Below are positions 2,010 to 47,702 of a stretch of 64,000 nucleotides of DNA, piece after piece. The notes below the pieces were generated by a model. That model made no database searches and had not been told where the DNA came from. It saw only the letters and a program-made list of their open reading frames with translations. Position 1 is the stretch's first letter. Every line of letters begins with the position of its first letter. The stretch is taken from the NCBI RefSeq assembly GCF_003334305.1, contig NZ_QOWS01000002.1, one strand, 5' to 3'. This stretch comes from Escherichia coli (lineage in GTDB: Bacteria > Pseudomonadota > Gammaproteobacteria > Enterobacterales > Enterobacteriaceae). The position numbers were made by a program, and so were the translations under genes.

Positions 2010-2345
2010 CACTACTTGCTGATACATTAATTTAATTTCTCTCTTAACGTATTCTCAGTTCCTTTCAACGTTTTGGTTATTTTTTATTCTTCGTACAATG
2101 GCGACAGATGCTGATTATGATACCGAAAACTGGTTTGAACGTGCGAAGCCTGAACGTAGTGTTCGGTGTTCTATGTGCTTTACCGCATTTTGGCGTCGAT
2201 TATTTACACTAAATCTGATTTAATATATTGATACATAAAACATTTTATGCTTCCTGTGTCACTTTTTTGATGGAAGTTGTTTGCATTTCTTTAAGGCGAA
2301 ACAAATAATTACGCATCAATTTTAATGTCGGTTAGAGGGAAACTT

Positions 2346-3959: not shown

Positions 3960-4009
3960 TGTGATGGGAACTGGCGTTACCCTTGTGGATAACGCCAGTG
4001 ATGTCTGAT

Positions 4010-5041: not shown

Positions 5042-5284
5042 TGTTTTATCAGGCTCCTCCAGATAATTGTCGTCATGCCGGAAACCCCTGGCGGGGCTAT
5101 TTTACCGCGACAATTCATTCAGATCATCAATAGTCAGGGAAGGAAGTAGCAATATTAGCTAACTAATCAATGCGTTGATTGTAAATCCAGCTAAGAGGTG
5201 AGGTTTTCAGAGCAGACAACGGTGAAATGTCATGGTATTGTTACGTTTAGGTAACAAGAAATTTGTCTGCACAAGGATTACATC

Positions 5285-27909: not shown

Positions 27910-30549
27910 ATGCTGGGTAAATATAAAGCCGTTCTCGCGCTGTTATTACTGATTATTCTTGTGCCGTTGACGCTGCTGATGACGCTCGGGCTGTGGGTTC
28001 CCACGCTGGCGGGCATCTGGCTACCGCTCGGGACACGTATTGCATTAGATGAAAGCCCACGCATTACGCGTAAAGGTTTAATCATTCCCGATCTCCGTTA
28101 TCTGGTGGGAGATTGTCAGCTTGCGCATATCACCAACGCCAGCCTTTCACATCCCAGCCGCTGGTTATTGAACGTCGGCATGGTAGAACTTGATTCTGCT
28201 TGTCTGGCGAAATTGCCGCAGACGGAGCAATCGCCAGCTGCTCCAAAAACCCTCGCGCAGTGGCAGTCCATGCTGCCTAACACCTGGATCAATATCGATA
28301 AACTGATTTTTTCTCCCTGGCAGGAATGGCAGGGAAAACTCTCTCTCGCATTAACCTCTGATATCCAGCAACTGCGTTATCAGGGCGAAAAAGTTAAATT
28401 TCAAGGCCAGCTGAAAGGGCAACAACTTACAGTCAGCGAACTGGATGTCGTCGCGTTTGAAAATCAGCCGCCGGTTAAACTGGTGGGGGAATTTACTATG
28501 CCGCTCGTGCCGGATGGACTTCCTGTAAGTGGGCATGCTACTGCGACGTTAAACTTGCCGCAGGAACCGTCACTGGTGGATGCAGAGCTGGACTGGCAGG
28601 AAAATAGCGGGCAATTGATTGTGCTGGCACGGGATAACGGCGATCCGTTGCTCGATTTGCCGTGGCAAATTACTCGTCAACAATTGACCGTAAGCGATGG
28701 TCGCTGGAGCTGGCCGTATGCAGGTTTTCCTTTGAGTGGCCGACTGGGTGTCAAAGTCGACAACTGGCAGGCAGGGCTCGAGAACGCTCTGGTCAGCGGG
28801 CGACTGAGTGTGCTGACCCAGGGGCAAGCGGGTAAAGGCAACGCGGTGCTTAATTTTGGTCCAGGAAAATTAAGCATGGAAAAAAGTCAGATGCCACTGC
28901 AACTGACCGGTGAAGCGAAACAGGCGGACCTCATTTTATATGCCCGCTTACCCGCGCAGCTAAGTGGAAGTCTGACTGACCCAACGCTGGCCTTTGAGCC
29001 CGGCGCGTTATTACGTTCGAAGGGAAGAGTCATCGATTCGCTGGACATCGATGAAATCCGCTGGCCTTTAGCGGGTGTAAAAGTCACCCAACGTGGTGTT
29101 GACGGACGTTTGCAGGCCATTTTGCAGGCGCATGAAAATGAACTGGGCGATTTCGTGCTGCATATGGATGGGCTGGCGAATGATTTTCTCCCTGACGCTG
29201 GCCGCTGGCAGTGGCGCTACTGGGGAAAAGGCAGTTTTACACCGATGAATGCCACCTGGGATGTTGCAGGAAAAGGTGAGTGGCATGACAGCACGATTAC
29301 GCTGACCGATCTCTCCACCGGTTTCGACCAGTTACAATACGGTACGATGACGGTAGAAAAGCCGCGATTAATTCTCGACAAGCCCGTCGTCTGGGTACGT
29401 GACGCACAGCATCCCTCCTTCAGCGGCGCGCTGTCACTGGACGCCGGGCAAACGCTGTTCACTGGCGGCAGTGTGTTACCGCCATCAACCTTAAAATTTA
29501 GCGTCGATGGGCGCGATCCGACGTATTTCCTCTTTAAAGGCGATTTACATGCTGGTGAGATTGGCCCGGTTCGGGTAAATGGTCGCTGGGACGGTATTCG
29601 TCTGCGCGGTAACGCCTGGTGGCCAAAACAATCACTGACTGTATTCCAGCCGCTGGTGCCACCCGACTGGAAGATGAACTTACGCGATGGTGAACTGTAT
29701 GCTCAGGTTGCATTTTCTGCTGCGCCTGAACAAGGATTCCGCGCGGGAGGACACGGCGTGTTGAAAGGCGGTAGTGCCTGGATGCCAGATAATCAGGTTA
29801 ACGGTGTCGATTTTGTCCTGCCTTTCCGTTTTGCCGATGGAGCCTGGCATCTGGGGACTCGCGGCCCCGTTACGTTGCGAATTGCCGAAGTGATTAATCT
29901 GGTGACAGCGAAAAATATTACGGCTGATTTGCAAGGGCGTTATCCGTGGACTGAAGAAGAACCCTTGCTGTTGACTGATGTTAGCGTCGATGTGTTAGGC
30001 GGTAACGTACTGATGAAACAATTACGTATGCCGCAACATGACCCGGCGCTGTTGCGGCTGAATAATCTCTCATCCAGCGAACTGGTTAGCGCCGTCAATC
30101 CGAAACAATTCGCCATGTCCGGGGCATTTAGTGGTGCATTGCCGTTATGGCTAAACAACGAAAAATGGATAGTGAAAGATGGTTGGCTGGCAAATAGCGG
30201 GCCAATGACCTTGCGGCTGGATAAAGACACCGCAGATGCGGTGGTGAAAGACAATATGACTGCGGGTTCAGCAATTAACTGGTTGCGCTATATGGAAATT
30301 AGCCGGTCATCGACAAAAATTAACTTAGATAATCTCGGTTTATTAACCATGCAGGCCAACATTACAGGTACCAGTCGCGTTGATGGTAAAAGCGGTACGG
30401 TAAACCTTAATTACTATCATGAAGAGAATATTTTTACGCTGTGGCGCAGTTTACGCTTTGGCGATAATCTCCAGGCATGGTTGGAGCAGAACGCACGTCT
30501 GCCGGGAAATGACTGTCCGCAAGGAAAAGAGTGTGAGGAAAAACAATGA
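27910..30549 (+). CDS. ydbH: AsmA-family envelope protein YdbH
   Basis: 879-aa ORF, N-terminal TM anchor, beta-rich periplasmic body. Confidence 0.9.
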   Translation: MLGKYKAVLALLLLIILVPLTLLMTLGLWVPTLAGIWLPLGTRIALDESPRITRKGLIIPDLRYLVGDCQLAHITNASLSHPSRWLLNVGMVELDSACLAKLPQTEQSPAAPKTLAQWQSMLPNTWINIDKLIFSPWQEWQGKLSLALTSDIQQLRYQGEKVKFQGQLKGQQLTVSELDVVAFENQPPVKLVGEFTMPLVPDGLPVSGHATATLNLPQEPSLVDAELDWQENSGQLIVLARDNGDPLLDLPWQITRQQLTVSDGRWSWPYAGFPLSGRLGVKVDNWQAGLENALVSGRLSVLTQGQAGKGNAVLNFGPGKLSMEKSQMPLQLTGEAKQADLILYARLPAQLSGSLTDPTLAFEPGALLRSKGRVIDSLDIDEIRWPLAGVKVTQRGVDGRLQAILQAHENELGDFVLHMDGLANDFLPDAGRWQWRYWGKGSFTPMNATWDVAGKGEWHDSTITLTDLSTGFDQLQYGTMTVEKPRLILDKPVVWVRDAQHPSFSGALSLDAGQTLFTGGSVLPPSTLKFSVDGRDPTYFLFKGDLHAGEIGPVRVNGRWDGIRLRGNAWWPKQSLTVFQPLVPPDWKMNLRDGELYAQVAFSAAPEQGFRAGGHGVLKGGSAWMPDNQVNGVDFVLPFRFADGAWHLGTRGPVTLRIAEVINLVTAKNITADLQGRYPWTEEEPLLLTDVSVDVLGGNVLMKQLRMPQHDPALLRLNNLSSSELVSAVNPKQFAMSGAFSGALPLWLNNEKWIVKDGWLANSGPMTLRLDKDTADAVVKDNMTAGSAINWLRYMEISRSSTKINLDNLGLLTMQANITGTSRVDGKSGTVNLNYYHEENIFTLWRSLRFGDNLQAWLEQNARLPGNDCPQGKECEEKQ

Positions 30550-30731
30550 AAATTTTACTGGCTGCGTTGACGTCATCTTTTATGCTGGCTGCCTGTACGC
30601 CGCGTATTGAAGTCGCTGCGCCCAAGGAACCGATCACTATCAATATGAACGTTAAAATTGAGCATGAGATCATCATCAAGGCAGACAAAGATGTCGAAGA
30701 GCTGCTTGAAACTCGTAGCGATCTTTTCTGA
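30546..30731 (+). CDS. ynbE: small lipoprotein YnbE
   Basis: 61-aa ORF with lipobox (MLAAC); start overlaps ydbH stop by 4 nt. Confidence 0.8.
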   Translation: MKILLAALTSSFMLAACTPRIEVAAPKEPITINMNVKIEHEIIIKADKDVEELLETRSDLF

Positions 30732-30738
30732 GGCGATG

Positions 30739-31065
30739 ATGAAGAAAACATTACTTCTTTGTGCGTTTCTTGTTGGGCTGGTAAGCAGCAATGTAATGGC
30801 ATTGACTCTGGATGAAGCCAGAACTCAGGGGCGGGTAGGTGAAACATTTTATGGTTATCTGGTTGCGCTGAAAACGGATGCTGAAACAGAGAAATTAGTA
30901 ACCGACATTAATGCCGAACGTAAAGCGAGTTACCAACAACTGGCAAAGCAAAATAATGTGTCTGTAGATGATATCGCGAAACTCGCCGGGCAAAAGCTCG
31001 TAGCTCGGGCCAAACCGGGGGAATATGTACAAGGGATAAACGGTAAATGGGTGCGAAAATTTTAA
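30739..31065 (+). CDS. ydbL: periplasmic DUF1318 protein YdbL
   Basis: Track ORF 30658-31065; start trimmed to the ATG pair at 30736/30739 just after the ynbE stop; signal peptide. Confidence 0.75.
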   Translation: MKKTLLLCAFLVGLVSSNVMALTLDEARTQGRVGETFYGYLVALKTDAETEKLVTDINAERKASYQQLAKQNNVSVDDIAKLAGQKLVARAKPGEYVQGINGKWVRKF

Positions 31066-31236
31066 TAGCAAAACCGCAATATCGGGATAACGCTACAGGA
31101 GAAAGCGATTGATCTATTTTCCTGAAACAAGGTGAATATTCAAAAACTCCTGTCAAATTGCCTTTCGCCCTGAAAAATGCATAGTCAAATATCTGTTTTA
31201 ACTAATTGGCGTTGCAGTACACACAACGCCAATTAG

Positions 31237-32142
31237 TTAGCGGAATTTACGTCGATACTCGCCTGGCGTCATCCCAAAGCGTTGCTTAAATACCGTTGAA
31301 AAATGACTCTGGTCAGAAAATCCCCAATGAAAGCCGATGCCTGCCAGTTTTTCATCATCTGCGGCATGGCGAATCGCATCTGCACAAAAATCGAGACGAC
31401 GGTTACGAATATATTGCGCGACTACCAAACCTTTATCGGCAAACATTCGGTACAAACTACGTACTGACATACCTGTCTCTCCGGCTATCCACTCCGGGCG
31501 TAATATCTCTTCGCGAATATTATCGTCTATCAACGTAACCACTTTTTGAAACTGACGTTCACGACGAGGTTGAACAGATTCCCGCTGATGAAGTACCGGG
31601 CGCAGCAGACACACCATCGCCTGTAGCGCAGCTTCACTTTCTGTTTCAGAAAGTGCCGGATTATTCATGCTCTCCTGTAACAGGCGATGACTGAGTTGCA
31701 CCATGGGTAAGTCAGCGTCCAGTCTTTCTGCGCAGACAGGTTTTTGATGGGGAAAATATTGTTCCAGCAGAGTGCGTGGCAAAAGTAATGAAATCTGTTT
31801 AGAAGACTCCTGCCAGTAAAGCGAACAGGGGCGTGAGGCATCGAGTAACGTAATATCGCCAGCGCCAATCTGCACCTGACGCTCATCCTGCTCCATTATT
31901 GCCTGACCACTAAGCTGAAAAACGGTGTAAAACCAGGCATCGTCGCTGCCTTTTACCTCCTGCCAGGTGCGGGATAAATTCACCCCGCTGGTTGTCACGG
32001 TACTCAGCTTTAGTCCTTTGGCAAAATGCGTGTCCAGTACACCCGTGTAACGCTCAGTCAGCAGGCGTCCGGTAAAATTTCCGCATACCTGATTGATTTG
32101 GGAAAGCCATTGCTGAAACTCATTATCCATTGCGGGGTTCAT
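31237..32142 (-). CDS. feaR: AraC-family activator of feaB/tynA
   Basis: 301-aa ORF with C-terminal AraC HTH. Confidence 0.9.
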   Translation of the reverse strand: MNPAMDNEFQQWLSQINQVCGNFTGRLLTERYTGVLDTHFAKGLKLSTVTTSGVNLSRTWQEVKGSDDAWFYTVFQLSGQAIMEQDERQVQIGAGDITLLDASRPCSLYWQESSKQISLLLPRTLLEQYFPHQKPVCAERLDADLPMVQLSHRLLQESMNNPALSETESEAALQAMVCLLRPVLHQRESVQPRRERQFQKVVTLIDDNIREEILRPEWIAGETGMSVRSLYRMFADKGLVVAQYIRNRRLDFCADAIRHAADDEKLAGIGFHWGFSDQSHFSTVFKQRFGMTPGEYRRKFR

Positions 32143-32377
32143 GGCACGTTTTCGCTCTGTGAAATGTATTTTTATTGTTGCATTTGTGTTGCAATAAACG
32201 AAGCTAATGAGCCTGACTATAGGAAATAAGTCTTGTCAGGCATAGAGACATAAGCGGTTATTGTCACGATTTGCGGAGCTTGTCACAGCTGACAAAGCGA
32301 ATGTCACAGCGAAAAAAGTGACTTTTCTTGTCGCTGCGTACACTGAAATCACACTGGGTAAATAATAAGGAAAAGTG

Positions 32378-33877
32378 ATGACAGAGCCGCATGTAGCAGT
32401 ATTAAGCCAGGTCCAACAGTTTCTCGATCGTCAACACGGTCTTTATATTGATGGTCGTCCTGGCCCCGCACAAAGTGAAAAACGGTTGGCGATCTTTGAT
32501 CCGGCCACCGGGCAAGAAATTGCGTCTACTGCTGATGCCAACGAAGCGGATGTAGATAACGCAGTCATGTCTGCCTGGCGGGCCTTTGTCTCGCGTCGCT
32601 GGGCCGGGCGATTACCCGCAGAGCGTGAACGTATTCTGCTACGTTTTGCCGATCTGGTGGAACAGCACAGTGAGGAGCTGGCGCAACTGGAAACCCTGGA
32701 GCAAGGCAAGTCAATTGCCATTTCCCGTGCTTTTGAAGTGGGCTGTACGCTGAACTGGATGCGTTATACCGCCGGGTTAACGACCAAAATCGCGGGTAAA
32801 ACGCTGGACTTGTCGATTCTCTTACCCCAGGGGGCGCGTTATCAGGCCTGGACGCGTAAAGAGCCGGTTGGCGTAGTGGCGGGAATTGTGCCATGGAACT
32901 TTCCGTTGATGATTGGTATGTGGAAGGTGATGCCAGCACTGGCAGCAGGCTGTTCAATCGTGATTAAGCCTTCGGAAACCACGCCACTGACGATGTTGCG
33001 CGTGGCGGAACTGGCCAGCGAGGCTGGTATCCCTGATGGCGTTTTTAATGTCGTCACCGGGTCAGGTGCTGTATGCGGCGCGGCCCTGACGTCACATCCT
33101 CATGTTGCGAAAATCAGTTTTACCGGTTCAACCGCGACGGGAAAAGGTATTGCCAGAACTGCTGCTGATCACTTAACGCGTGTAACGCTGGAACTGGGCG
33201 GTAAAAACCCGGCAATTGTATTAAAAGATGCTGATCCGCAATGGGTTATTGAAGGCTTGATGACCGGAAGCTTCCTGAATCAAGGGCAAGTATGCGCCGC
33301 CAGTTCGCGAATTTATATTGAAGCGCCGTTGTTTGACACGCTGGTTAGTGGATTTGAGCAGGCGGTAAAATCGTTGCAAGTGGGACCGGGGATGTCACCT
33401 GTTGCACAGATTAACCCTTTGGTTTCTCGTGCGCACTGCGACAAAGTGTGTTCATTCCTCGACGATGCGCAGGCACAGCAAGCAGAGCTGATTCGCGGGT
33501 CGAATGGACCAGCCGGAGAGGGGTATTATGTTGCGCCAACGCTGGTGGTAAATCCCGATGCTAAATTGCGCTTAACTCGTGAAGAGGTGTTTGGTCCGGT
33601 GGTAAACCTGGTGCGAGTAGCGGATGGAGAAGAGGCGTTACAACTGGCAAACGACACGGAATATGGCTTAACTGCCAGTGTCTGGACGCAAAATCTCTCC
33701 CAGGCTCTGGAATATAGCGATCGCTTACAGGCAGGGACGGTGTGGGTAAACAGCCATACCTTAATTGACGCTAACTTACCGTTTGGTGGGATGAAGCAGT
33801 CAGGAACGGGCCGTGATTTTGGCCCCGACTGGCTGGACGGTTGGTGTGAAACTAAGTCGGTGTGTGTACGGTATTAA
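32378..33877 (+). CDS. feaB: phenylacetaldehyde dehydrogenase
   Basis: Track ORF 32375-33877; start at MTEPHVAVL; aldehyde dehydrogenase motifs. Confidence 0.9.
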
Positions 33878-33893
33878 TCTGGTTCGCTCATAA

Positions 33894-33924
33894 GTAAAAA
33901 ACGGCACCTGGTGCCGTTTTTTTG
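33894..33924. terminator. bidirectional Rho-independent terminator between convergent feaB and tynA
   Basis: A5-ACGGCACC/GGTGCCGT-T7. Confidence 0.7.
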
Positions 33925-33934
33925 TCTGAAACAA

Positions 33935-36208
33935 TCACTTATCTTTCTTCAGCGCCCCTAGCGTTGGCGTTTCGTCAAAGAAGTTCCATGGTTTAAGCAG
34001 AGTATGTACCCATTCGGTCGGCATAATCGGCCACTCTTCGGCGCGGGCCACATGTGTGGTGCCGGTGGTCATCCAGACAACGGCGTCGGTGTTGTCCAGC
34101 GACTCGTTATCTTTACTGTATTGTCCAAGACCGGTGTCATGAGTAGAACGGTTCGGATATTTGCCTTCCGGGAAACGCTCGCCAGGATGATAACGCGTTA
34201 CCCAAAGCTGCTTGTCCATAAAGCTTAAACGATGATAGATCCACTCGTCCGGCGCGAACTGGGCACCTTTTGCTACCGGGTGAGTACCACCTGCATAAGG
34301 AATAATTTGATAGGAAACTGGATTGCCCATGCGGTTCTCTTTGTTCGGGTTACTCAACAGACGAATCGTGCCCGGATCAAACTTCTGCGCGGCATCCTGT
34401 TCATTGCCGATGTTGTACTGATTAACTTGCATGGTACTGGTGCGTGGGCCACCGGCAGTATTCGGTTTTACCACTGGGTCCATCGCCACCAGGCTGTTAT
34501 TCTCGCCATCTACATCCAGATCGAGGCGGAAATTATAAATATGTTGGTGTGTAGTACCCACGATATTGTGATCGATAAGCGTGCCGTAGCGCGTGTCATC
34601 TTTCGCCGTCTCATCGTGCATGGTTTTCGCTTTAACACCTTTCACCGCTTCGATGCCCGTAGCACCGGCATCAATGCCAATAGTGCCGTTTTCATGGAAG
34701 ATCCAGTCAAAAATGTAGTCATAGTTACCCACTGTACTGATCCAGCGCACCACTAACTCCCGGCGTTCGGTACTGACGTTGGGCTGGCCCATTTCCTGAT
34801 GCTTATACTCCGGCCCGGCATAACGTTCAAATACCGCGATAGCGCGAGGGATCTCCATCGGCACGCCAGTGTAGTCGGCGATGGTTTCATTAAGGAGCAC
34901 TGCGTTAGACGGGGCATCTTTACCACGAGCAATTGGTGAGGTTAGCGTGCCCATACCGTAGTCACCAGAGTCCAGATACGCTTTAAAGTACCAGCCAATA
35001 TCAGGATCACCGTAAGGCACAATCATGCCGCCGAGAGAACCTTCGTACATGACTTTGCGTTTGGTGCCATTGTCGTTATAAGTCACGGTGGAGATCATCG
35101 GCCCGACGCGAGAGTTCATGCTGAGGTGAAAATCCCAGTTCCGCCAGTGAATCATATCGCCAGTAATGGTGTAATTTTTACCTTCAGGCTCAATGATTTG
35201 CATAGGCTTAACTGCCGGAGCAACGCGGTCACGGCTATCAAATGGGCGTGCGGTCATTGGCACCGGAACTACCGGACCTTCTTCAATCTTAACGATTTTT
35301 TTCTGTTCTAAATCAACGACCGCCACCAGGTTTTCGATGGGATGTGCCCAGTAGTTGCCATCACCGACATCAAGATAGCTGATGACTTTGAGCAACCGGG
35401 CATCTTGTTTCAGGCCATCTTTACCATCGAAATAACCTACGGTCAGCGGCGTGGTAATCACTTTTTTCGCATCAGTAATACCGCGTTTCTTCACGGCAGC
35501 GGCAAATTCTTCACTGTTGTTAATAATGTTCTGCACACTGGCGAAATCATCCAGCAACACCATACCGTGGGCGTCTTTAATGGGTTGCCAGGAGAGCAGT
35601 TTGTTGTTTTGCAGATCCACCACCGCTTCGATGATATGTTTGCCGTCGAGCATAATGACGTCGGCTTTGCGCGGCTGGTCAACCGGTTTGTTTTCCAGCG
35701 CAAACGCCCAGACAGCTTCTTTATCTGGCGGTAGCAGGGAGATCTCAGTAAAACGGGTATTGGGTTTGAAGTCCGCGGAAGCTTTAACAATTTCAACGGC
35801 CTGTTTAATTTCGTCCGCAGTTAGCGCATTAAGTGGGTGAGGGCGCTTTTCTACCTGAAAGGTTTGATCCAGACCGGACTGGAAAACATCGTTAATAAAG
35901 GTGTCAGAAACCCAGGCCTTATTGTCTTTCATCACTACCGGCACTTGCAGTGCCAGAGGTTGACCATTAACAATTGCTGTTTGCGCACCAGGCTTCACTT
36001 TCACGTACGCGCCATCTTTAATCAGGGTAAAGATCTGGGCGTAGTCGTCCCACTGCACATCGGCACCAAATTCTTTAAGCGTTTCATCCATTGGCACCAT
36101 ATGCGCTTCACCACCGTGGGCAAATACCGGCGCTTGCCAGGCGAAACTTAAGGCGACTGCCAACGCCAGGGTTGTTTTACGGGCAGAATACAGAGAGGGG
36201 CTTCCCAT
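33935..36208 (-). CDS. tynA: periplasmic copper/topaquinone amine oxidase
   Basis: Track ORF 33935-36244; start trimmed to MGSPSLYSARKT (757 aa). Confidence 0.9.
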   Translation of the reverse strand: MGSPSLYSARKTTLALAVALSFAWQAPVFAHGGEAHMVPMDETLKEFGADVQWDDYAQIFTLIKDGAYVKVKPGAQTAIVNGQPLALQVPVVMKDNKAWVSDTFINDVFQSGLDQTFQVEKRPHPLNALTADEIKQAVEIVKASADFKPNTRFTEISLLPPDKEAVWAFALENKPVDQPRKADVIMLDGKHIIEAVVDLQNNKLLSWQPIKDAHGMVLLDDFASVQNIINNSEEFAAAVKKRGITDAKKVITTPLTVGYFDGKDGLKQDARLLKVISYLDVGDGNYWAHPIENLVAVVDLEQKKIVKIEEGPVVPVPMTARPFDSRDRVAPAVKPMQIIEPEGKNYTITGDMIHWRNWDFHLSMNSRVGPMISTVTYNDNGTKRKVMYEGSLGGMIVPYGDPDIGWYFKAYLDSGDYGMGTLTSPIARGKDAPSNAVLLNETIADYTGVPMEIPRAIAVFERYAGPEYKHQEMGQPNVSTERRELVVRWISTVGNYDYIFDWIFHENGTIGIDAGATGIEAVKGVKAKTMHDETAKDDTRYGTLIDHNIVGTTHQHIYNFRLDLDVDGENNSLVAMDPVVKPNTAGGPRTSTMQVNQYNIGNEQDAAQKFDPGTIRLLSNPNKENRMGNPVSYQIIPYAGGTHPVAKGAQFAPDEWIYHRLSFMDKQLWVTRYHPGERFPEGKYPNRSTHDTGLGQYSKDNESLDNTDAVVWMTTGTTHVARAEEWPIMPTEWVHTLLKPWNFFDETPTLGALKKDK

Positions 36209-36455
36209 TATTAACCTCGTCAGATGTTGTGTTCTTGTTAGCAACCGCGCTCTGTGGGCGGTTTAGTCAGGTTCACATTATCAGTACTGATGCAAAGGGG
36301 ATTGCCTGCACCTGCCAGGTTGTTTGGCAGGTGTGCCAGCTTTTCATACAGTGGGTGCCCTGAAAATAGATGTACACATCATGCATAATGTGACAACGTC
36401 ACAAAACTTAGTGAAATAAAAGGGCAACTATTGGCCGTTGCCCTTCATTCACCGA

Positions 36456-38099
36456 TTAATCGACAAAATCACCGTGCTGCCTGGCCACCAGCGTCAGAAT
36501 TGAATACAGCGCCACCGGGGTTTGATGCTGATTGAATACCTCTACCGCCCATTCCACCACACCTGTTGGTTTTTCTTCTGCGCTACGCTGTTTTTTCAGC
36601 GTCTTGCGCTTACAGGTGAGACGCACCTGGATGGTATCGCCTGGCTTTACGGGTTCGATAAAGCGCAAGTTTTCCAGCCCATAATTAGCAATGACCGGAC
36701 CGACACCGGCATCGACAAACAGACCCGCAGCCGCAGAAAGCACAAAATACCCATGCACCACACGCTCACCGAAAATAGATTCGGCAGCAGCAATCTTATC
36801 CATATGCGCATAGAAATGATCGCCGCTGAGGCAAGCAAAGTTAACAATATCGGCCTCTGTCATTGTGCGGCGGGGAGTCAGCAGGCTGTCGCCTGGTTGT
36901 AGCTCCTCAAAATATTTGCGGAACGGATGAATACGATCTTCTTCGACTTTCGCACCACGCACCCACTGTTTACTGATAGCTGCAAGCATCGTCGGACTAC
37001 CCTGAACAGCGGTTCGCTGCATGTAATGTTTCACCGCTCGTAAACCACCTAATTCTTCACCGCCTCCTGCGCGACCAGGCCCACCATGTAACAGTTGTGG
37101 CAGTGGGGAGCCATGCCCGGTGGATTCTTTTGCCGATTCCTCATTGAGGATCTGAATTCGCCCATGCGTACGTGCCGCGTCGGTAATAAACTGACGCGCA
37201 ATTTGCGGATCAGCCGTCACCAGCGTTCCCGCAAGGCTACCGCCGCCTGCACAAGCCAGTTGCAGAGCATGTCGCTGGTTTTGTGCTGGCATCAGCGTTG
37301 CGACAGGGCCAAAGGCTTCTGTTGCATGTACCGCCGGTGTTTCATCCGGCTGCGGACAGTACAATAAGGTTGGCGGGAAGAAGGCACCCGCAGCAGATAA
37401 ATCCGCCTGACCACCGAGGCGAATCTCGCATCCTGCAGCCAGCAATATGTTCACTTTTTCCTGCACATCGGCACGCTGCTCAGCATTTACCAGTGCGCCC
37501 ATTTTCACGCCTTCCTGAGCAGGATCACCGACCACGACTTTCTGTAATCGCGCAACCAGAGCATCACTGACAGCATTAACCAATGCCTGCGGCACAATAA
37601 TCCGCCGGATTGCCGTACATTTTTGCCCGGCTTTTGTGGTCATCTCACGCACAACTTCACGAATAAACAGCGCAAACTCCGGTTGATCCGGGGTGACATC
37701 TTCGCCCAGTACGCAGCAGTTCAGGGAATCAGCTTCCATAGTGAAGGGGATAGATTTGGCGACGATATTTGGCTGAACTCGCAGCATCTGTCCGGTCGCC
37801 GCTGACCCCGTGAAAGTCACCACATCCTGGCTGTCCAGATGATCCAAAAGGTCGCCCGCACTACCGCAGATCAGACTAATTGCGCCTTCGGGAACAAGAC
37901 CACTATCGACAATTGATTTCACCATCGCCTGAGTCAGTTGGGCCGTCGCGGTAGCTGGTTTGATGATGGCTGGCATTCCGCCCAGCCACGTTGGTGCCAG
38001 CTTTTCCAGCATTCCCCAGCAGGGGAAGTTAAAGGCGTTAATATGCACTGCCACGCCTGACTTTGAGGTCAGTACATGGCGCGCGGCAAATCCACCTTC
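36456..38099 (-). pseudogene. paaZ: paaZ, 5'-truncated (about 130 N-terminal codons missing)
   Basis: PaaZ-like frame continues upstream of the track GTG start (...[23 protein letters not shown]) and ends at an in-frame stop (rc TGA at 38100-38102) created at the junction; at most 548 codons versus about 681 recalled for intact PaaZ. Confidence 0.8.
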
Positions 38100-38100
38100 T

Positions 38101-39051
38101 CATTTGACCTTAAAAGCCAGTCTTGATGGTGAAGAATTACGCCGTTGTTACTCCATTTGCCGCAGCTACCTGCCTGGCGAAATTAGTGTGGCGGTGAAAG
38201 CCATTGAAGGCGGACGTTTCTCCCGCTATGCCCGCGAACACATCCGCCAGGGTATGACGCTGGAGGTCATGGTGCCGCAGGGGCATTTCGGCTATCAGCC
38301 ACAGGCCGAACGCCAGGGCCGCTATCTGGCTATTGCAGCAGGATCAGGTATTACGCCAATGCTGGCGATTATCGCCACCACTTTACAAACCGAGCCTGAA
38401 AGTCAGTTCACCCTGATCTACGGTAACCGTACCAGCCAGAGCATGATGTTTCGCCAGGCACTGGCAGACCTGAAAGACAAATATCCTCAGCGTTTACAGT
38501 TGTTGTGCATTTTCAGTCAGGAAACCCTCGACAGCGATCTGCTTCACGGGCGTATTGACGGTGAAAAATTACAGTCACTTGGGGCCTCGCTCATTAATTT
38601 TCGTCTTTATGATGAGGCATTTATTTGTGGTCCGGCGGCGATGATGGATGAGACGGAAGCCGCCTTAAAAGCACTGGGAATGCCAGATAAAACCATTCAT
38701 CTGGAGCGGTTTAATACGCCTGGCACGCGCGTCAAACGTAGCGTTAACGTGCAAAGTGACGGACAAAAAGTGACTGTACGTCAGGATGGGCGGGATCGGG
38801 AAATCGTGCTTAATGCCGACGATGAAAGCATTCTCGATGCGGCATTGCGCCAGGGGGCTGATCTGCCCTATGCCTGCAAAGGCGGCGTCTGTGCGACCTG
38901 CAAATGCAAAGTGCTGCGTGGCAAAGTGGCGATGGAAACCAATTACAGTCTGGAACCGGATGAACTGGCCGCAGGTTATGTGTTGAGTTGCCAGGCACTG
39001 CCGCTGACCAGCGATGTGGTGGTTGACTTTGACGCGAAGGGGATGGCATGA
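38101..39051 (+). pseudogene. paaE: paaE, 5'-truncated (about 40 N-terminal codons missing), fused in frame to antisense paaZ sequence
   Basis: PaaE-like sequence starts abruptly at HLTLKASLDGEELRRCYSICRS... at 38101; C-terminal 2Fe-2S motif (CKGGVCATCKC) intact. Confidence 0.8.
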
Positions 39052-39815
39052 GCGAACTGATCGTCAGCCGTCAGCAACAAGTATTGTTGCTGACCCTTAA
39101 CCGTCCCGCCGCACGTAATGCGCTAAATAATGCCCTTCTGACGCAACTGGTAAATGAACTGGAAGCTGCGGCTACCGATAGCAGCATTTCGGTCTGTGTG
39201 ATTACCGGTAATGCACGCTTTTTTGCCGCTGGGGCCGATCTCAACGAAATGGCAGAAAAAGATCTCGCGGCCACCTTAAACGATACACGTCCGCAGCTAT
39301 GGGCGCGATTGCAGGCCTTTAATAAACCACTTATCGCAGCCGTCAATGGTTACGCGCTTGGGGCGGGTTGCGAACTGGCATTGTTGTGCGATGTGGTGGT
39401 TGCCGGAGAGAACGCGCGTTTTGGGTTGCCGGAAATCACTCTCGGCATCATGCCAGGCGCAGGAGGAACGCAACGTTTAATCCGTAGTGTCGGTAAATCG
39501 TTAGCCAGCAAAATGGTGCTGAGCGGAGAAAGTATCACCGCTCAGCAAGCACAGCAGGCCGGGCTGGTTAGCGACGTCTTCCCCAGCGATTTAACCCTCG
39601 AATACGCCTTACAGCTGGCATCGAAAATGGCACGTCACTCGCCGCTGGCCTTACAAGCGGCAAAGCAAGCGCTGCGCCAGTCGCAGGAAGTGGCTTTGCA
39701 AGCCGGACTTGCCCAGGAGCGACAGTTATTCACCTTGCTGGCGGCAACAGAAGATCGTCATGAAGGCATCTCCGCTTTCTTACAAAAACGCACGCCCGAC
39801 TTTAAAGGACGCTAA
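39048..39815 (+). CDS. paaF: 2,3-dehydroadipyl-CoA hydratase (enoyl-CoA hydratase)
   Basis: 255-aa crotonase-fold ORF in paa synteny. Confidence 0.9.
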   Translation: MSELIVSRQQQVLLLTLNRPAARNALNNALLTQLVNELEAAATDSSISVCVITGNARFFAAGADLNEMAEKDLAATLNDTRPQLWARLQAFNKPLIAAVNGYALGAGCELALLCDVVVAGENARFGLPEITLGIMPGAGGTQRLIRSVGKSLASKMVLSGESITAQQAQQAGLVSDVFPSDLTLEYALQLASKMARHSPLALQAAKQALRQSQEVALQAGLAQERQLFTLLAATEDRHEGISAFLQKRTPDFKGR

Positions 39816-40603
39816 TGATGGAATTCATCCTCAGTCATGTAGAAAAGGGCGTGATGACACTAACGCTCAACCGCCCGGAACGCCTGAACAGTTTTAATGA
39901 TGAGATGCACGCACAACTGGCAGAGTGCCTGAAACAGGTCGAGCGCGACGACACTATCCGTTGCCTGTTACTTACAGGTGCCGGGCGCGGATTTTGTGCT
40001 GGTCAGGATCTTAACGATCGTAACGTTGATCCCACAGGCCCCGCACCGGATTTAGGGATGTCAGTTGAACGTTTCTATAACCCACTGGTACGTCGCCTGG
40101 CAAAACTGCCAAAACCGGTGATCTGTGCAGTCAATGGCGTGGCGGCAGGGGCAGGCGCAACACTGGCACTGGGGTGCGACATCGTTATTGCTGCCCGTTC
40201 AGCAAAATTCGTCATGGCGTTTAGTAAGTTAGGCTTAATACCCGATTGCGGTGGAACCTGGTTACTGCCACGCGTTGCTGGGCGAGCGCGCGCCATGGGG
40301 CTGGCACTGCTGGGGAATCAACTGAGTGCTGAACAGGCGCACGAATGGGGGATGATCTGGCAGGTTGTTGATGATGAAACGCTGGCAGATACCGCGCAAC
40401 AGCTGGCACGGCATCTGGCGACACAACCGACATTTGGTCTTGGACTTATCAAGCAAGCGATAAATAGCGCTGAAACCAATACGCTCGATACGCAACTGGA
40501 TCTGGAACGTGACTATCAGCGACTTGCCGGACGGAGCGCAGATTATCGTGAAGGTGTCAGTGCGTTCCTGGCTAAACGCTCACCGCAGTTCACGGGGAAA
40601 TAG
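39815..40603 (+). CDS. paaG: 1,2-epoxyphenylacetyl-CoA isomerase (crotonase family)
   Basis: 262-aa ORF, start overlaps paaF stop. Confidence 0.9.
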   Translation: MMEFILSHVEKGVMTLTLNRPERLNSFNDEMHAQLAECLKQVERDDTIRCLLLTGAGRGFCAGQDLNDRNVDPTGPAPDLGMSVERFYNPLVRRLAKLPKPVICAVNGVAAGAGATLALGCDIVIAARSAKFVMAFSKLGLIPDCGGTWLLPRVAGRARAMGLALLGNQLSAEQAHEWGMIWQVVDDETLADTAQQLARHLATQPTFGLGLIKQAINSAETNTLDTQLDLERDYQRLAGRSADYREGVSAFLAKRSPQFTGK

Positions 40604-40604
40604 C

Positions 40605-42032
40605 ATGATGATAAATGTGCAAACTGTGGCAGTGATTGGGAGCGGCACCATGGGGGCAGGCATTGCTGAAGTTGCCGCCAGTCATGGACATCAGGTTTTA
40701 CTGTATGACATTTCTGCTGAAGCGCTGACCCGCGCAATCGACGGGATACACGCGCGGCTAAATTCACGCGTGACGCGGGGAAAACTGACCGCTGAAACCT
40801 GTGAACGCACATTGAAACGCCTGATCCCGGTGACCGATATTCACGCGCTGGCAGCAGCGAATCTGGTTATTGAAGCGGCGTCTGAACGTCTGGAAGTTAA
40901 AAAAGCGCTCTTTGCACAACTGGCGGAAGTTTGCCCGCCACAAACGCTATTGACCACTAACACTTCGTCAATCTCTATAACCGCGATTGCTGCGGAGGTA
41001 AAAAATCCTGAACGTGTTGCGGGGCTGCATTTTTTTAACCCGGCACCGGTGATGAAGTTGGTGGAGGTGGTCAGTGGGCTGGCAACGGCAGCGGAAGTTG
41101 TCGAGCAGTTGTGTGAACTGACATTGAGTTGGGGTAAGCAGCCAGTGCGCTGTCATTCGACCCCCGGATTTATCGTTAACCGTGTTGCGCGTCCTTATTA
41201 TTCCGAGGCCTGGCGGGCACTGGAAGAGCAGGTTGCTGCACCAGAAGTGATTGACGCTGCACTTCGCGATGGCGCTGGTTTCCCGATGGGGCCGCTGGAA
41301 TTAACCGATCTGATTGGTCAGGACGTCAATTTTGCTGTCACCTGTTCGGTGTTTAACGCTTTCTGGCAGGAGCGTCGTTTTTTACCTTCGCTGGTGCAAC
41401 AGGAACTGGTGATTGGTGGACGGTTGGGCAAGAAAAGTGGGCTGGGCGTGTACGACTGGCGCGCGGAACGTGAGGCAGTTGTTGGCCTGGAAGCGGTAAG
41501 CGACAGTTTTAGCCCAATGAAAGTAGAAAAGAAAAGTGACGGTGTCACGGAAATTGACGATGTTTTATTGATTGAGACACAAGGCGAGACGGCACAGGCG
41601 CTGGCAACACGACTGGCGCGCCCGGTGGTAGTTATCGACAAAATGGCGGGCAAGGTGGTGACCATTGCTGCGGCAGCGGTGAACCCGGACTCAGCGACCC
41701 ACAAGGCCATTTATTACCTGCAACAGCAGGGCAAAACAGTGCTGCAAATTGCAGATTACCCAGGAATGCTGATTTGGCGAACGGTAGCAATGATCATCAA
41801 TGAAGCCCTTGATGCGCTGCAAAAAGGCGTGGCCTCTGAACAGGATATCGATACCGCCATGCGTCTTGGGGTGAATTATCCATATGGCCCGCTTGCCTGG
41901 GGAGCGCAACTTGGCTGGCAGCGAATATTAAGGCTCCTGGAAAATCTACAACATCACTATGGCGAAGAACGCTATCGCCCATGTTCATTGCTGCGCCAAC
42001 GGGCGCTTCTGGAGAGCGGTTATGAGTCATAA
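40605..42032 (+). CDS. paaH: 3-hydroxyadipyl-CoA dehydrogenase
   Basis: Track ORF 40509-42032; start trimmed to MMINVQTVAVIGSGTMG. Confidence 0.9.
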   Translation: MMINVQTVAVIGSGTMGAGIAEVAASHGHQVLLYDISAEALTRAIDGIHARLNSRVTRGKLTAETCERTLKRLIPVTDIHALAAANLVIEAASERLEVKKALFAQLAEVCPPQTLLTTNTSSISITAIAAEVKNPERVAGLHFFNPAPVMKLVEVVSGLATAAEVVEQLCELTLSWGKQPVRCHSTPGFIVNRVARPYYSEAWRALEEQVAAPEVIDAALRDGAGFPMGPLELTDLIGQDVNFAVTCSVFNAFWQERRFLPSLVQQELVIGGRLGKKSGLGVYDWRAEREAVVGLEAVSDSFSPMKVEKKSDGVTEIDDVLLIETQGETAQALATRLARPVVVIDKMAGKVVTIAAAAVNPDSATHKAIYYLQQQGKTVLQIADYPGMLIWRTVAMIINEALDALQKGVASEQDIDTAMRLGVNYPYGPLAWGAQLGWQRILRLLENLQHHYGEERYRPCSLLRQRALLESGYES

Positions 42033-42444
42033 GGCCTGGCAAAATGCCCATGCAATGTATGAGAACGATGCCTGCGCGAAAGCGCTTGGCATCGACATTA
42101 TCTCAATGGATGAAGGCTTTGCTGTAGTGACCATGACCGTCACTGTACAAATGCTTAATGGTCATCAAAGTTGCCACGGCGGGCAGCTATTTTCACTGGC
42201 TGATACTGCCTTTGCCTACGCCTGCAATAGCCAGGGGTTGGCAGCTGTCGCTTCTGCCTGCACGATTGATTTTTTACGTCCAGGCTTTGCCGGAGACACC
42301 TTAACTGCGACTGCGCAGGTTCGTCATCAGGGCAAGCAAACCGGTGTTTACGACATCGAAATTGTTAACCAACAACAAAAAACGGTTGCGCTGTTTCGCG
42401 GTAAATCTCACCGCATCGGCGGCACCATTATAGGAGAAGCCTGA
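42022..42444 (+). CDS. paaI: hot-dog-fold phenylacetyl-CoA thioesterase
   Basis: Track ORF 41959-42444; start trimmed to MSHKAWQ (140 aa). Confidence 0.85.
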   Translation: MSHKAWQNAHAMYENDACAKALGIDIISMDEGFAVVTMTVTVQMLNGHQSCHGGQLFSLADTAFAYACNSQGLAAVASACTIDFLRPGFAGDTLTATAQVRHQGKQTGVYDIEIVNQQQKTVALFRGKSHRIGGTIIGEA

Positions 42445-43649
42445 TGCGTGAAGCCTTTATTTGTGACGGAATTCGTACGCCAATTGGTCGCTACGGCGGG
42501 GCATTATCAGGTGTTCGGGCTGATGATCTGGCTGCTATCCCTTTGCGGGAACTGCTGGTGCGAAACCCGCGTCTCGATGCGGAGTGTATCGATGATGTGA
42601 TCCTCGGCTGTGCTAATCAGGCGGGAGAAGATAACCGTAACGTAGCCCGGATGGCGACTTTACTGGCGGGGCTGCCGCAGAGTGTTTCCGGCACAACCAT
42701 TAACCGCTTGTGTGGTTCCGGGCTGGACGCACTGGGGTTCGCCGCACGGGCGATTAAAGCGGGCGATGGCGATTTGCTGATCGCTGGTGGCGTGGAGTCA
42801 ATGTCTCGGGCACCGTTTGTTATGGGCAAGGCAACCAGTGCATTTTCTCGTCAGGCTGAGATGTTTGATACCACTATTGGCTGGCGATTTGTGAACCCGC
42901 TCATGGCTCAACAATTTGGAACTGACAGCATGCCGGAAACGGCAGAGAATGTAGCTGAACTGTTAAAAATCTCGCGAGAAGATCAAGATAGTTTTGCGCT
43001 ACGCAGTCAGCAACGTACGGCAAAAGCGCAATCCTCAGGCATTCTGGCTGAGGAGATTGTTCCGGTTGTGTTGAAAAACAAGAAAGGCGTTGTAACAGAA
43101 ATACAACATGATGAGCATCTGCGCCCGGAAACGACGCTGGAACAGTTACGTGGGTTAAAAGCACCGTTTCGTGCCAATGGGGTGATTACCGCAGGCAATG
43201 CCTCCGGGGTGAATGACGGAGCCGCTGCGTTGATTATTGCCAGTGAACAGATGGCAGCAGCGCAAGGACTGACGCCGCGGGCGCGTATCGTAGCCATGGC
43301 AACCGCCGGGGTGGAACCGCGTCTGATGGGGCTTGGTCCGGTGCCTGCAACTCGCCGGGTGCTGGAACGCGCGGGGCTGAGTATTCACGATATGGACGTG
43401 ATTGAATTGAACGAAGCGTTCGCGGCCCAGGCGTTGGGTGTACTACGCGAATTGGGGCTGCCTGATGATGCCCCACATGTTAACCCCAACGGAGGCGCTA
43501 TCGCCTTAGGCCATCCGTTGGGAATGAGTGGTGCCCGCCTGGCACTGGCTGCCAGCCATGAGCTGCATCGGCGTAACGGTCGTTACGCATTATGCACCAT
43601 GTGCATCGGTGTCGGTCAGGGCATCGCCATGATTCTGGAGCGTGTTTGA
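42444..43649 (+). CDS. paaJ: 3-oxoadipyl-CoA / 3-oxo-5,6-dehydrosuberyl-CoA thiolase
   Basis: 401-aa thiolase ORF. Confidence 0.9.
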
Positions 43650-43675
43650 GCATATCAACCTGCGAGTACCCTACA

Positions 43676-44989
43676 ATGATAACCAATACAAAGCTTGACC
43701 CGATTGAAACCGCGTCTGTTGATGAGTTACAGGCGTTGCAAACACAGCGTCTGAAATGGACGCTCAAACACGCGTATGAAAATGTCCCGATGTATCGGCG
43801 CAAATTCGACGCAGCAGGCGTACATCCTGATGATTTCAGGGAACTTTCAGACCTGCGTAAATTTCCCTGTACCACCAAACAGGATCTGCGCGACAACTAT
43901 CCCTTTGACACCTTTGCCGTGCCGATGGAACAAGTGGTGCGCATTCATGCTTCTTCGGGAACCACAGGTAAACCGACAGTTGTCGGTTATACGCAAAACG
44001 ATATTGATAACTGGGCCAATATTGTAGCGCGTTCTTTGCGTGCGGCAGGGGGCTCGCCCAAAGACAAAATTCATGTTGCCTATGGTTACGGCCTGTTTAC
44101 TGGTGGGCTGGGCGCGCACTATGGTGCCGAACGTCTGGGCGCTACGGTGATCCCGATGTCTGGCGGGCAGACGGAAAAACAAGCGCAACTGATCCGCGAT
44201 TTTCAACCAGATATGATCATGGTTACGCCATCTTATTGCCTTAACCTGATTGAAGAGCTGGAGCGGCAGTTGGGCGGTGATGCCAGCGGTTGCTCGCTGC
44301 GGGTTGGCGTGTTTGGTGCTGAGCCGTGGACACAGGCCATGCGTAAAGAGATTGAACGGCGTCTGGGGATCACCGCACTGGATATTTATGGCCTGTCAGA
44401 AGTGATGGGGCCGGGGGTGGCGATGGAGTGTCTGGAAACTACCGACGGTCCAACTATTTGGGAAGATCATTTCTATCCTGAAATTGTTAATCCTCATGAC
44501 GGCACACCGCTTGCCGATGGTGAACATGGCGAACTGTTATTCACCACGCTGACCAAAGAAGCATTGCCGGTCATTCGTTACCGCACGCGTGATTTAACCC
44601 GACTGTTACCAGGAACGGCGCGGACTATGCGCCGCATGGATCGCATCAGCGGACGCAGCGATGACATGTTGATTATTCGCGGTGTAAATGTCTTTCCGTC
44701 ACAACTGGAAGAAGAGATTGTCAAATTCGAACATTTATCGCCGCATTACCAACTGGAGGTGAACCGCCGGGGGCATCTTGATTCACTTTCTGTGAAAGTG
44801 GAGTTGAAAGAAAGTAGCCTGACATTGACGCATGAGCAGCGTTGCCAGGTATGCCACCAGCTGCGCCATCGGATTAAGTCGATGGTGGGGATCTCTACCG
44901 ATGTGATGATCGTTAACTGTGGCAGTATCCCGCGTTCAGAAGGCAAGGCGTGTCGGGTGTTTGATCTGCGCAATATTGTTGGTGCCTGA
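43676..44989 (+). CDS. paaK: phenylacetate-CoA ligase
   Basis: Track ORF 43592-44989; start trimmed to MITNTKLDP (437 aa). Confidence 0.9.
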   Translation: MITNTKLDPIETASVDELQALQTQRLKWTLKHAYENVPMYRRKFDAAGVHPDDFRELSDLRKFPCTTKQDLRDNYPFDTFAVPMEQVVRIHASSGTTGKPTVVGYTQNDIDNWANIVARSLRAAGGSPKDKIHVAYGYGLFTGGLGAHYGAERLGATVIPMSGGQTEKQAQLIRDFQPDMIMVTPSYCLNLIEELERQLGGDASGCSLRVGVFGAEPWTQAMRKEIERRLGITALDIYGLSEVMGPGVAMECLETTDGPTIWEDHFYPEIVNPHDGTPLADGEHGELLFTTLTKEALPVIRYRTRDLTRLLPGTARTMRRMDRISGRSDDMLIIRGVNVFPSQLEEEIVKFEHLSPHYQLEVNRRGHLDSLSVKVELKESSLTLTHEQRCQVCHQLRHRIKSMVGISTDVMIVNCGSIPRSEGKACRVFDLRNIVGA

Positions 44990-45050
44990 CGTGTCGTCTG
45001 GCCCTGGTGAGGTAAAGCGTCAGGGCCAGAAGTCGATACGACCTGTGCTA

Positions 45051-45089
45051 TGATTCATAAATCACAACAATAACAACAGACTGAATCGA
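45051..45089. promoter_or_regulatory. PaaX-operator-like inverted repeat TGATTC-N27-GAATCG abutting the paaX start
   Basis: TGATTC at 45051-45056 and GAATCG at 45084-45089, spacing counted as 27 nt; compare the described PaaX operator TGATTC-N27-GAATCA. Confidence 0.5.
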
Positions 45090-46040
45090 ATGAGTAAACT
45101 TGATACTTTTATCCAACATGCTGTAAACGCTGTTCCGGTCAGTGGCACATCTTTGATCTCCTCTCTGTATGGTGATTCGCTTTCCCATCGTGGTGGTGAA
45201 ATCTGGCTTGGTAGTCTGGCTGCTTTGCTGGAAGGGCTGGGATTTGGTGAGCGTTTCGTGCGCACTGCTTTGTTTCGTCTTAATAAAGAAGGCTGGCTGG
45301 ATGTTTCCCGCATCGGGCGACGCAGTTTCTATAGCCTCAGTGATAAAGGCTTGCGCCTGACGCGACGGGCAGAAAGTAAAATTTATCGCGCAGAGCAACC
45401 TGCATGGGATGGTAAATGGCTCCTGTTGCTCTCGGAAGGTTTAGATAAAGCGACGCTGGCTGATGTCAAAAAGCAGTTGATCTGGCAAGGTTTTGGCGCA
45501 CTGGCACCCAGCCTGATGGCATCGCCGTCGCAAAAACTGGCGGATGTACAGACACTTTTGCATGAAGCGGGGGTGGCGGATAACGTGATTTGTTTTGAAG
45601 CGCAAATACCACTGGCGCTTTCTCGCGCAGCACTGCGTGCCAGAGTAGAAGAGTGCTGGCATTTAACTGAACAAAATGCCATGTACGAAACCTTTATTCA
45701 GTCATTCCGCCCGCTGGTGCCGCTGTTAAAAGAGACGGCAGACGAGTTAACCCCGGAGCGTGCATTTCATATTCAGCTTTTACTGAGCCATTTTTATCGC
45801 CGTGTCGTCCTTAAAGACCCATTGTTGCCGGAGGAGTTGCTTCCGGCTCACTGGGCAGGGCATACGGCGCGTCAGCTGTGTATCAACATTTATCAGCGCG
45901 TAGCGCCTGCTGCTTTAGCGTTCGTTAGTGAAAAAGGTGAAACCTCAGTCGGTGAACTGCCTGCGCCGGGAAGCCTGTATTTTCAACGTTTTGGCGGCTT
46001 GAATATTGAACAGGAGGCGTTATGCCAATTTACCAGATAG
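45090..46040 (+). CDS. paaX: PaaX repressor of the phenylacetate catabolic genes
   Basis: 316-aa ORF in paa synteny. Confidence 0.9.
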
Positions 46041-46612
46041 ATGGTCTGACTCCGGTTGTGCCAGAAGAGAGCTTTGTCCATCCGACAGCGGTATTGATCG
46101 GCGATGTTATTCTCGGCAAGGGCGTTTACGTTGGGCCTAATGCCAGCCTGCGTGGCGATTTTGGTCGTATCGTGGTGAAAGATGGCGCGAACATTCAGGA
46201 TAATTGCGTTATGCACGGTTTTCCCGAGCAGGATACTGTCGTGGAAGAAGATGGGCATATTGGTCATAGCGCTATCCTTCACGGCTGCATTATCCGCCGC
46301 AATGCATTAGTGGGAATGAACGCGGTAGTGATGGACGGTGCGGTGATTGGCGAGAACAGCATTGTTGGCGCATCCGCATTTGTGAAAGCCAAAGCAGAAA
46401 TGCCTGCTAATTACCTGATTGTCGGCAGCCCGGCCAAAGCGATTCGTGAACTTAGTGAGCAGGAGTTGGCATGGAAAAAGCAGGGTACGCATGAGTACCA
46501 GGTGCTGGTGACACGCTGTAAGCTGACGTTGCATCAAGTCGAACCATTGCGGGAAGTTGAACCTGGCAGGCAGCGCCTGGTATTTGATGAGAATCTGCGA
46601 CCGAAACAGTAA
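46022..46612 (+). CDS. paaY: PaaY hexapeptide-repeat thioesterase
   Basis: 196-aa ORF overlapping the paaX stop. Confidence 0.9.
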
Positions 46613-46655
46613 CGTCCAGATACTGAACATTCTAATTTTTAGCATGTGATACCTA

Positions 46656-46688
46656 AACCGCAACGCTGATACAGGTTGCGGTTTTTTA
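46656..46688 (+). terminator. Rho-independent terminator of paaXY
   Basis: AACCGCAAC-loop-GTTGCGGTT followed by TTTTT. Confidence 0.7.
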
Positions 46689-46841
46689 TTGCCGGATGCG
46701 GTACTTGTCGCGTTTTGTTTTGTGTTTTTCAGGACAATAGAGCAACTCATCCAGTAATCTTGTTTACGCCCTCGCATTATTTATCTCTTTTCGTTTCTAT
46801 ACTGATTTTTCTTAATCCGTTTTATTACAGGGCAGGGTGCG

Positions 46842-47702
46842 ATGAGCAGCAATACATTTACTCTCGGTACAAAATCCGTTAACCGTCTTGGTTATGGCGC
46901 GATGCAACTGGCAGGTCCTGGGGTTTTTGGCCCCCCAAGAGATCGCCACGTCGCTATAACCGTGCTGCGCGAGGCGCTGGCATTGGGCGTCAATCACATT
47001 GATACCAGCGACTTTTATGGTCCGCACGTCACCAATCAGATTATCCGCGAAGCGCTTTATCCTTACTCTGACGACCTGACAATTGTCACTAAAATTGGTG
47101 CGCGGCGTGGAGAGGACGCTTCCTGGTTGCCCGCCTTTTCTCCGGCAGAGTTGCAAAAAGCGGTGCACGATAATCTACGTAATCTCGGCCTGGACGTACT
47201 GGATGTGGTTAACCTGCGCGTTATTATGGGGGATGGTCATGGCCCAGCGGAAGGATCGATTGAGGCCAGCCTGACCGTGCTGGCAGAGATGCAACAACAA
47301 GGCTTGGTAAAACATATTGGCCTGAGCAACGTCACACCGACGCAGGTTGCAGAGGCGCGCAAGATTGCCGAAATTGTCTGTGTGCAAAACGAATACAACA
47401 TCGCGCACCGTGCTGATGATGCAATGATTGATGCTTTGGCCCACGATGGCATTGCCTACGTGCCGTTCTTCCCGCTCGGGGGCTTTACACCGCTGCAATC
47501 CTCTACGCTGTCGGATGTTGCTGCGAGCCTGGGTGCAACACCCATGCAGGTGGCGCTGGCGTGGCTGTTACAACGTTCACCGAATATTTTGCTGATCCCA
47601 GGGACGTCTTCTGTTGCGCATTTACGGGAGAATATGGCTGCTGAAAAATTGCATCTTTCTGAGGAAGTGTTGTCTACGTTGGATGGTATTTCGCGAGAAT
47701 AA
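46842..47702 (+). CDS. ydbC: aldo-keto reductase family oxidoreductase
   Basis: 286-aa ORF. Confidence 0.85.
   Translation: MSSNTFTLGTKSVNRLGYGAMQLAGPGVFGPPRDRHVAITVLREALALGVNHIDTSDFYGPHVTNQIIREALYPYSDDLTIVTKIGARRGEDASWLPAFSPAELQKAVHDNLRNLGLDVLDVVNLRVIMGDGHGPAEGSIEASLTVLAEMQQQGLVKHIGLSNVTPTQVAEARKIAEIVCVQNEYNIAHRADDAMIDALAHDGIAYVPFFPLGGFTPLQSSTLSDVAASLGATPMQVALAWLLQRSPNILLIPGTSSVAHLRENMAAEKLHLSEEVLSTLDGISRE

Follow-up and report, generated by a model that had tools for sequence, protein, structure and literature searches.

The Px promoter-operator of paaXY beside a recently truncated paa cluster in Escherichia coli strain A7

The inverted repeat that abuts the start of paaX in the window analysed here, a stretch of 64,000 nucleotides of Escherichia coli DNA to which all coordinates refer, is the already described Px promoter-operator of the E. 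coli paaXY operon. Very probably, Px is repressed here by PaaX as known for this promoter, and has been kept because the deletion that took away Pa and Pz, its partner promoters, is confined to a single isolate and too recent for decay to have set in. According to the review PMC9493321, paaY is co-transcribed with paaX as the paaXY operon from a promoter of its own, Px, which PaaX represses by sterically blocking RNA polymerase (Fernandez et al. 2014). The review also reports PaaX binding at Px in vitro and its release by phenylacetyl-CoA, gives the E. coli PaaX box as TGATTC(N27)GAATCA (Kim et al. 2004), and places pac in E. coli W under PaaX control as well (Galan 2004, Kim 2004).

This region of the window is the E. 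coli feaR-feaB-tynA/paa locus, of which 19.3 kb (28400-47700) match the E. coli isolate A7, obtained from orangutan faeces (NZ_CP028767.1), with 100% identity. Alignment with K-12 shows that 3308 bp of the K-12 order (1894-5201 of our K-12 locus, L002) are missing at window position 38100|38101, in agreement with the preliminary description of this DNA, which had Pa and Pz deleted. As a result, paaZ has lost about 134 N-terminal codons and paaE its first 40 codons, and the Pz/Pa intergenic region and paaA-paaD are gone. The junction carries no microhomology, and a promoter scan of 37300-38400 around it returned 0 sites. The features of the locus are compiled in Table 1.

Table 1. Coordinates of features at the truncated paa cluster and at Px, with the basis of each assignment
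Feature	Position	Strand	Basis
paaZ remnant, 5'-truncated pseudogene without Pz	36456..38100	-	A7 RefSeq 'incomplete; missing N-terminus'; K-12 BLAST ends at L002 1893
Deletion junction, 3308 bp of K-12 order absent	38100..38101	.	K-12 alignment; junction 56-mer
paaE remnant without first 40 codons, no recognisable promoter	38101..39051	+	K-12 BLAST, RefSeq, promoter scan
paaFGHIJK, intact ORFs, Pa lost	39048..44989	+	ORFs, RefSeq; identical to A28/TUM1887
paaK	43676-44989	+	A7 RefSeq annotation
GC-rich hairpin without T-run	44990..45040	+	Inverted-repeat search, folding energy
Putative extended -10 of Px, TGcTATGAT	45046..45054	+	Conservation of the TGCTATGAT columns, at least 95% across 57 distinct upstream regions
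Left PaaX half-site TGATTC (cross-species TGATTCA), overlapping the putative -10	45051..45056	+	Published box, K-12 Pa/Pz boxes, conservation
Right PaaX half-site GAATCG (cross-species TGAATCA)	45083..45088	+	K-12 alignment, conservation
paaX, 316 aa	45090..46040	+	ORF, RefSeq, Pfam PaaX/PaaX_M/PaaX_C
paaY, overlapping the paaX 3' end	46022..46612	+	ORF, RefSeq

A 56-mer spanning the junction matched a single genome among 5426 complete E. coli genomes, that of strain A7; six genomes with at least 80% coverage were thereby ruled out as carriers of the deletion. In the nearest relatives, A28 (echidna) and TUM1887, paaZ-paaABCDE is intact. From paaE to pdxI (8.9 kb), A7 and A28 differ by a single mismatch, and over 42.6 kb by 8 SNPs, with 5 SNPs plus the deletion falling on the A7 branch when polarised with TUM1887. 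The uniqueness of the junction and the small number of SNPs relative to the closest relatives thus place the deletion in the very recent past and in a single isolate. As there has been no time for decay, the intact state of paaF-K, paaX, paaY and Px is the neutral expectation, and retention of these elements is uninformative on selection. To call PaaX and PaaY orphaned, as was done previously, is therefore a fair description of the present state, Pa and Pz being gone, whereas the accompanying suggestion that they may retain another role finds no support, given a junction confined to one genome, intact relatives and few SNPs. In the same stretch of DNA, pdxI directly follows paaY, with 46613-46841 between them, an arrangement common to A28 and TUM1887; the autotransporter pseudogene ydbA, which together with the IS2 and IS30 copies inserted in it takes up about 8.9 kb in K-12 (L002 13715-22655), is absent.

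Across E. coli, 3166 genomes have the Px region and 3132 the Pa/Pz region, so that Px without Pa/Pz occurs in about 34 of the 3166 paa-positive genomes, or roughly 1%. At least one of these, strain SW071610, apparently carries a different deletion, in which tynA is joined to a paaE remnant; partial paa deletions thus recur sporadically.

The protein encoded by paaX has the three-domain architecture of the GntR-like PaaX repressor family (PF07848, residues 19-87; PF20803, 104-172; PF08223, 190-280) and is closely identical to E. coli PaaX, matching PDB 8A39 over residues 1-316 (E = 2.6e-204). Its sequence carries an I233S substitution in the PaaX_C domain (ATC to AGC in codon 45786-45788, SNP at 45787), which is the sole difference of A7 from A28 and TUM1887 over the 8.9 kb from paaE to pdxI. 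Of the 5426 E. coli genomes, A7 alone carries the allele; at residue 233, 52 of 53 other species have Ile. A second A7-private substitution, P148L, affects the phenylacetaldehyde dehydrogenase FeaB (CCC to CTC in codon 32819-32821, SNP at 32820).

It is conceivable that the phenylethylamine/phenylacetate route is being actively inactivated in A7, the deletion, PaaX I233S and FeaB P148L being connected as adaptive or compensatory changes; a starvation-type PaaX defect, for instance, could have come first, after which the derepressed epoxidase genes were lost. Such a history would account for three A7-private lesions in one pathway and for the fact that no amino-acid changes other than I233S and P148L arose on the A7 branch over 42.6 kb, and it has a precedent in long-term starvation experiments, which repeatedly selected paaX loss-of-function mutations (PMC7858067; bioRxiv 10.1101/2023.10.04.560893). 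However, about 36% of the DNA compared belongs to genes of the pathway, so that both non-synonymous SNPs would fall there by chance with p ~0.13; the clustering of A7-private changes in the pathway is therefore not significant. We consider active inactivation quite unlikely, while a selective history of some kind may, given the starvation-selected paaX alleles, lie behind the A7 paaX/paa lesions.

Selection could alternatively have kept PaaX, PaaY and the Px operator for PaaX targets outside the paa cluster, in which case the cassette would not be orphaned. A screen of transcription factors detected binding of PaaX to the rsd promoter (PMC6134199), deletion of paaX raised motility and its overexpression was reported to increase the mutation rate (bioRxiv 10.1101/2023.10.04.560893), and the regulation of pac in E. 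coli W, as given in PMC9493321 (Galan 2004, Kim 2004), provides a target of this kind. Yet retention is expected without selection for a private deletion on a branch of 5 SNPs per 42.6 kb, the private I233S change at a near-invariant Ile does not suggest purifying selection, and only the small minority of paa-positive genomes noted above have Px without Pa/Pz. Nor does the window offer further targets: a relaxed PaaX-box scan (at most one mismatch, N26-28) gave 3 matches against 0.43 expected, but the two beyond Px (9800, 52800) both lie within coding ORFs and were dismissed as PaaX targets. Retention for other targets is thus very unlikely. More generally, it is unlikely that paaXY in A7 is anything but a passive remnant, be it through a paa-independent PaaX role (rsd, motility, mutation rate) or because the lesions record selection against phenylethylamine/phenylacetate catabolism in a host-associated lineage.

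The reading of the site as the PaaX-autorepressed Px operator is carried by its sequence, its position and its conservation. Compared with the published half-sites TGATTC and GAATCA, the left half-site at 45051 matches in 6 of 6 positions and the right one at 45083 in 5 of 6, and one base separates the latter from the paaX ATG at 45090. The two inverted 6-bp half-sites are separated by 26 nt (45057-45082), close to the roughly 27 bp of a PaaX box and a single base short of the N27 that was published. The longest inverted repeat at Px without a mismatch is GATTCA/TGAATC, with 24 nt between its arms. In the K-12 sequence, we read the Pa box as TGATTC-N27-GAATCG and the Pz box as TGTTTC-N28-GAATCA, so that N26 at Px adjoins the known range. 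Measured from centre to centre, the half-sites are 31 bp apart at Px, or about three helical turns; the corresponding distances at Pa and Pz are 32 and 33 bp. The 100-nt paaK-paaX intergenic region as a whole differs from K-12 at only 4 positions. Within the window, the motif count by itself is not above chance: TGATTC-N24-30-GAATC has 1 match against 0.36 expected, and at least one match was obtained in 24 of 100 shuffles.

In contrast, the cross-species footprint provides what we regard as the strongest evidence for an operator. We aligned the upstream regions of paaX loci from Enterobacteriaceae, taking one genome per species, and found exact TGATTC-N26/27-GAATC directly before the paaX ATG in 55 loci, with N26 in 52 of them. 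Among 57 distinct upstream sequences from about 25 genera, conservation reaches at least 95% in the columns of TGCTATGATTC(A) and TGAATC(A), and with them in the blocks TGCTATGATTCA and TGAATCA, whereas spacer and further upstream sequence are variable; the resulting consensus is a perfect 7-bp inverted repeat, TGATTCA-N24-TGAATCA. As the right block sits at the translation start, its conservation could in part stem from that position. That the inverted repeat is coincidental, its left block conserved only as the Px -10 and its right block only as the paaX translation-initiation region, would accord with the unremarkable motif count and with the overlap of each block with an element of other function. 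It is, however, extremely improbable, since about 50 species have the two blocks as a perfect inverted repeat of 7 bp (TGATTCA/TGAATCA) with the distance between them fixed, the blocks match the independently defined PaaX box of Pa/Pz, and PaaX repression at Px has been published (PMC9493321).

The published box and Px autorepression, the K-12 Pa/Pz boxes and the conservation of the half-sites across species together support the earlier identification of the site as the PaaX autoregulatory operator. Of the TGATTC-N27-GAATCG motif proposed to abut the paaX start, the half-sites and the position hold and the spacing needs correction to N26. The preliminary description had named a spacing that is off on alignment as grounds for rejecting the operator, and a comparison with characterised PaaX sites as one way to check it; the spacing is indeed off by one base, yet N26 is the conserved spacing at Px and lies next to those of Pa and Pz in K-12, and the difference does not refute the operator.

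Some paaX loci depart from this pattern. Cedecea, Buttiauxella and relatives (L055-L061, L065, L066, L071, L073, L081) keep TGCTATGTTTT upstream of paaX, which resembles a promoter -10, and both PaaX half-sites are missing, suggesting that PaaX autoregulation may be absent in this group. The paaX leader (45057-45089) lacks a recognisable Shine-Dalgarno sequence ahead of the ATG both in E. coli and in other genera, and has a conserved CA-rich ACAACAG block (columns at least 80%) instead. Most other genera have an in-frame ATG 9 nt upstream of the paaX ATG, inside the right half-site.

The right half-site is polymorphic within E. coli at base 45086: A7 has T, giving GAATCG, whereas K-12 has G, giving GAAGCG. 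Searches with allele-specific 55-mers whose 28-mer seeds all spanned the SNP typed 3164 of the 3166 genomes carrying the region and found T in 1502 and G in 1662. Since other genera carry T at the matching position, the window keeps the ancestral, more consensus-like half-site, and the G of K-12 is, judged by this comparison, derived and predicted to make a weaker half-site. With about half of E. coli, including K-12, carrying GAAGCG, the exact right half-site is not essential; the roughly even split between GAATCG and GAAGCG could set different levels of autorepression.

The left half-site overlaps a conserved TGcTATGAT element, a candidate for the extended -10 of Px. As a generic -35/-10 scan calls no canonical promoter at Px, we infer this assignment from conservation. 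The -35 position of Px falls in the hairpin that follows paaK, and the sequence there is not conserved. This hairpin begins just after the paaK stop codon (44987-44989); the GC-rich inverted repeat described earlier at 44998-45029 is real, with perfect core arms of 10 nt at 44997-45006 and 45021-45030, and pairing extends to about 20 pairs over 44990-45040 (-30.7 kcal/mol, z = -4.1). We considered an intrinsic (Rho-independent) terminator, and rejected this for E. coli because the strong stem is not followed by a T-run; the generic terminator scan likewise found 0 terminator-like sites at the hairpin. It is probably a 3'-end or insulator hairpin of the paaA-K transcript. Most Enterobacteriaceae paaK-paaX intergenic regions that we examined have a strong, non-homologous hairpin at the same position, followed in several of them by T-runs. 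In many Enterobacter, Lelliottia and Pseudocitrobacter loci (among L006-L080), the hairpin position is taken by one to several CCCTCTCCC...GGGAGAGGG palindromic repeats, and the 354-nt intergenic region of one locus (L029) appears to hold several tandem copies. An Rfam scan of 44800-45300 detected no known RNA family over the hairpin or the leader; a below-threshold match to HSR-omega_2 (E = 0.1) in this interval was discarded as spurious.

Taken as the PaaX-autorepressed Px, the site would operate as follows. Px would be an extended -10 promoter that has no conserved -35, as the paaK hairpin occupies that position. PaaX would bind two inverted half-sites, TGATTC(A) and (T)GAATCG, the left one overlapping the -10 and the right one covering the leader up to the start codon, so that bound PaaX would exclude RNA polymerase, until released from Px by phenylacetyl-CoA as in the published mechanism; as far as can be read from the footprint, such a layout agrees with the competition of PaaX and RNA polymerase that has been published. 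In A7, the very recent private 3.3-kb deletion has taken out Pz, Pa and paaABCD and left the remaining cluster unchanged. With Pa gone and no replacement promoter detected, paaE'-K should be silent, and with paaK devoid of a promoter, little of the inducer phenylacetyl-CoA is to be expected. PaaX would then stay on Px and hold paaXY at an autorepressed basal level, assuming that PaaX I233S is active; were it inactive, Px would be constitutively open. We infer that paaXY in A7 is now probably locked in low, autorepressed expression.

In itself the finding matters little, the Px operator being published and its orphaned layout a very recent accident in one isolate. As by-products, however, the comparison yields a definition of the Px operator, TGATTCA-N24-TGAATCA joined to a putative extended -10 and spaced one base more tightly than the Pa box, and A7 together with the intact A28 constitutes a natural near-isogenic pair for studying PaaX/PaaY function without the catabolic promoters.

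The deletion resembles other recent partial deletions of dispensable catabolic clusters in single E. coli isolates, being confined to one isolate, lacking microhomology and leaving the surviving genes still identical to those of close relatives; nothing sets it apart, and it is by chance that the regulator sits at the end of the cluster that was spared. With the E. coli paaXY Px, as presented in PMC9493321, the site shares the locus, the gene order paaK-hairpin-Px-paaX-paaY and the left half-site. It differs from Px of K-12 in its right half-site, GAATCG in place of GAAGCG, and in the deletion of the partner promoters Pa and Pz. A wider PaaX motif, WWTRTGATTCGYGWT, was reportedly described by Ferrandez in 2000. 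Like the PaaX boxes of Pa, Pz and pac, Px has 6-bp inverted half-sites about three helical turns apart, and where those boxes overlap core promoter elements, the left half-site of Px would do so at its candidate -10; unlike in those boxes, the flanks of its left half-site follow the putative extended -10 (GCTA-TGATTC-ATA) and not the wider WWTRTGATTCGYGWT motif, and its spacer is N26, compared to N27 at Pa and N28 at Pz of K-12.
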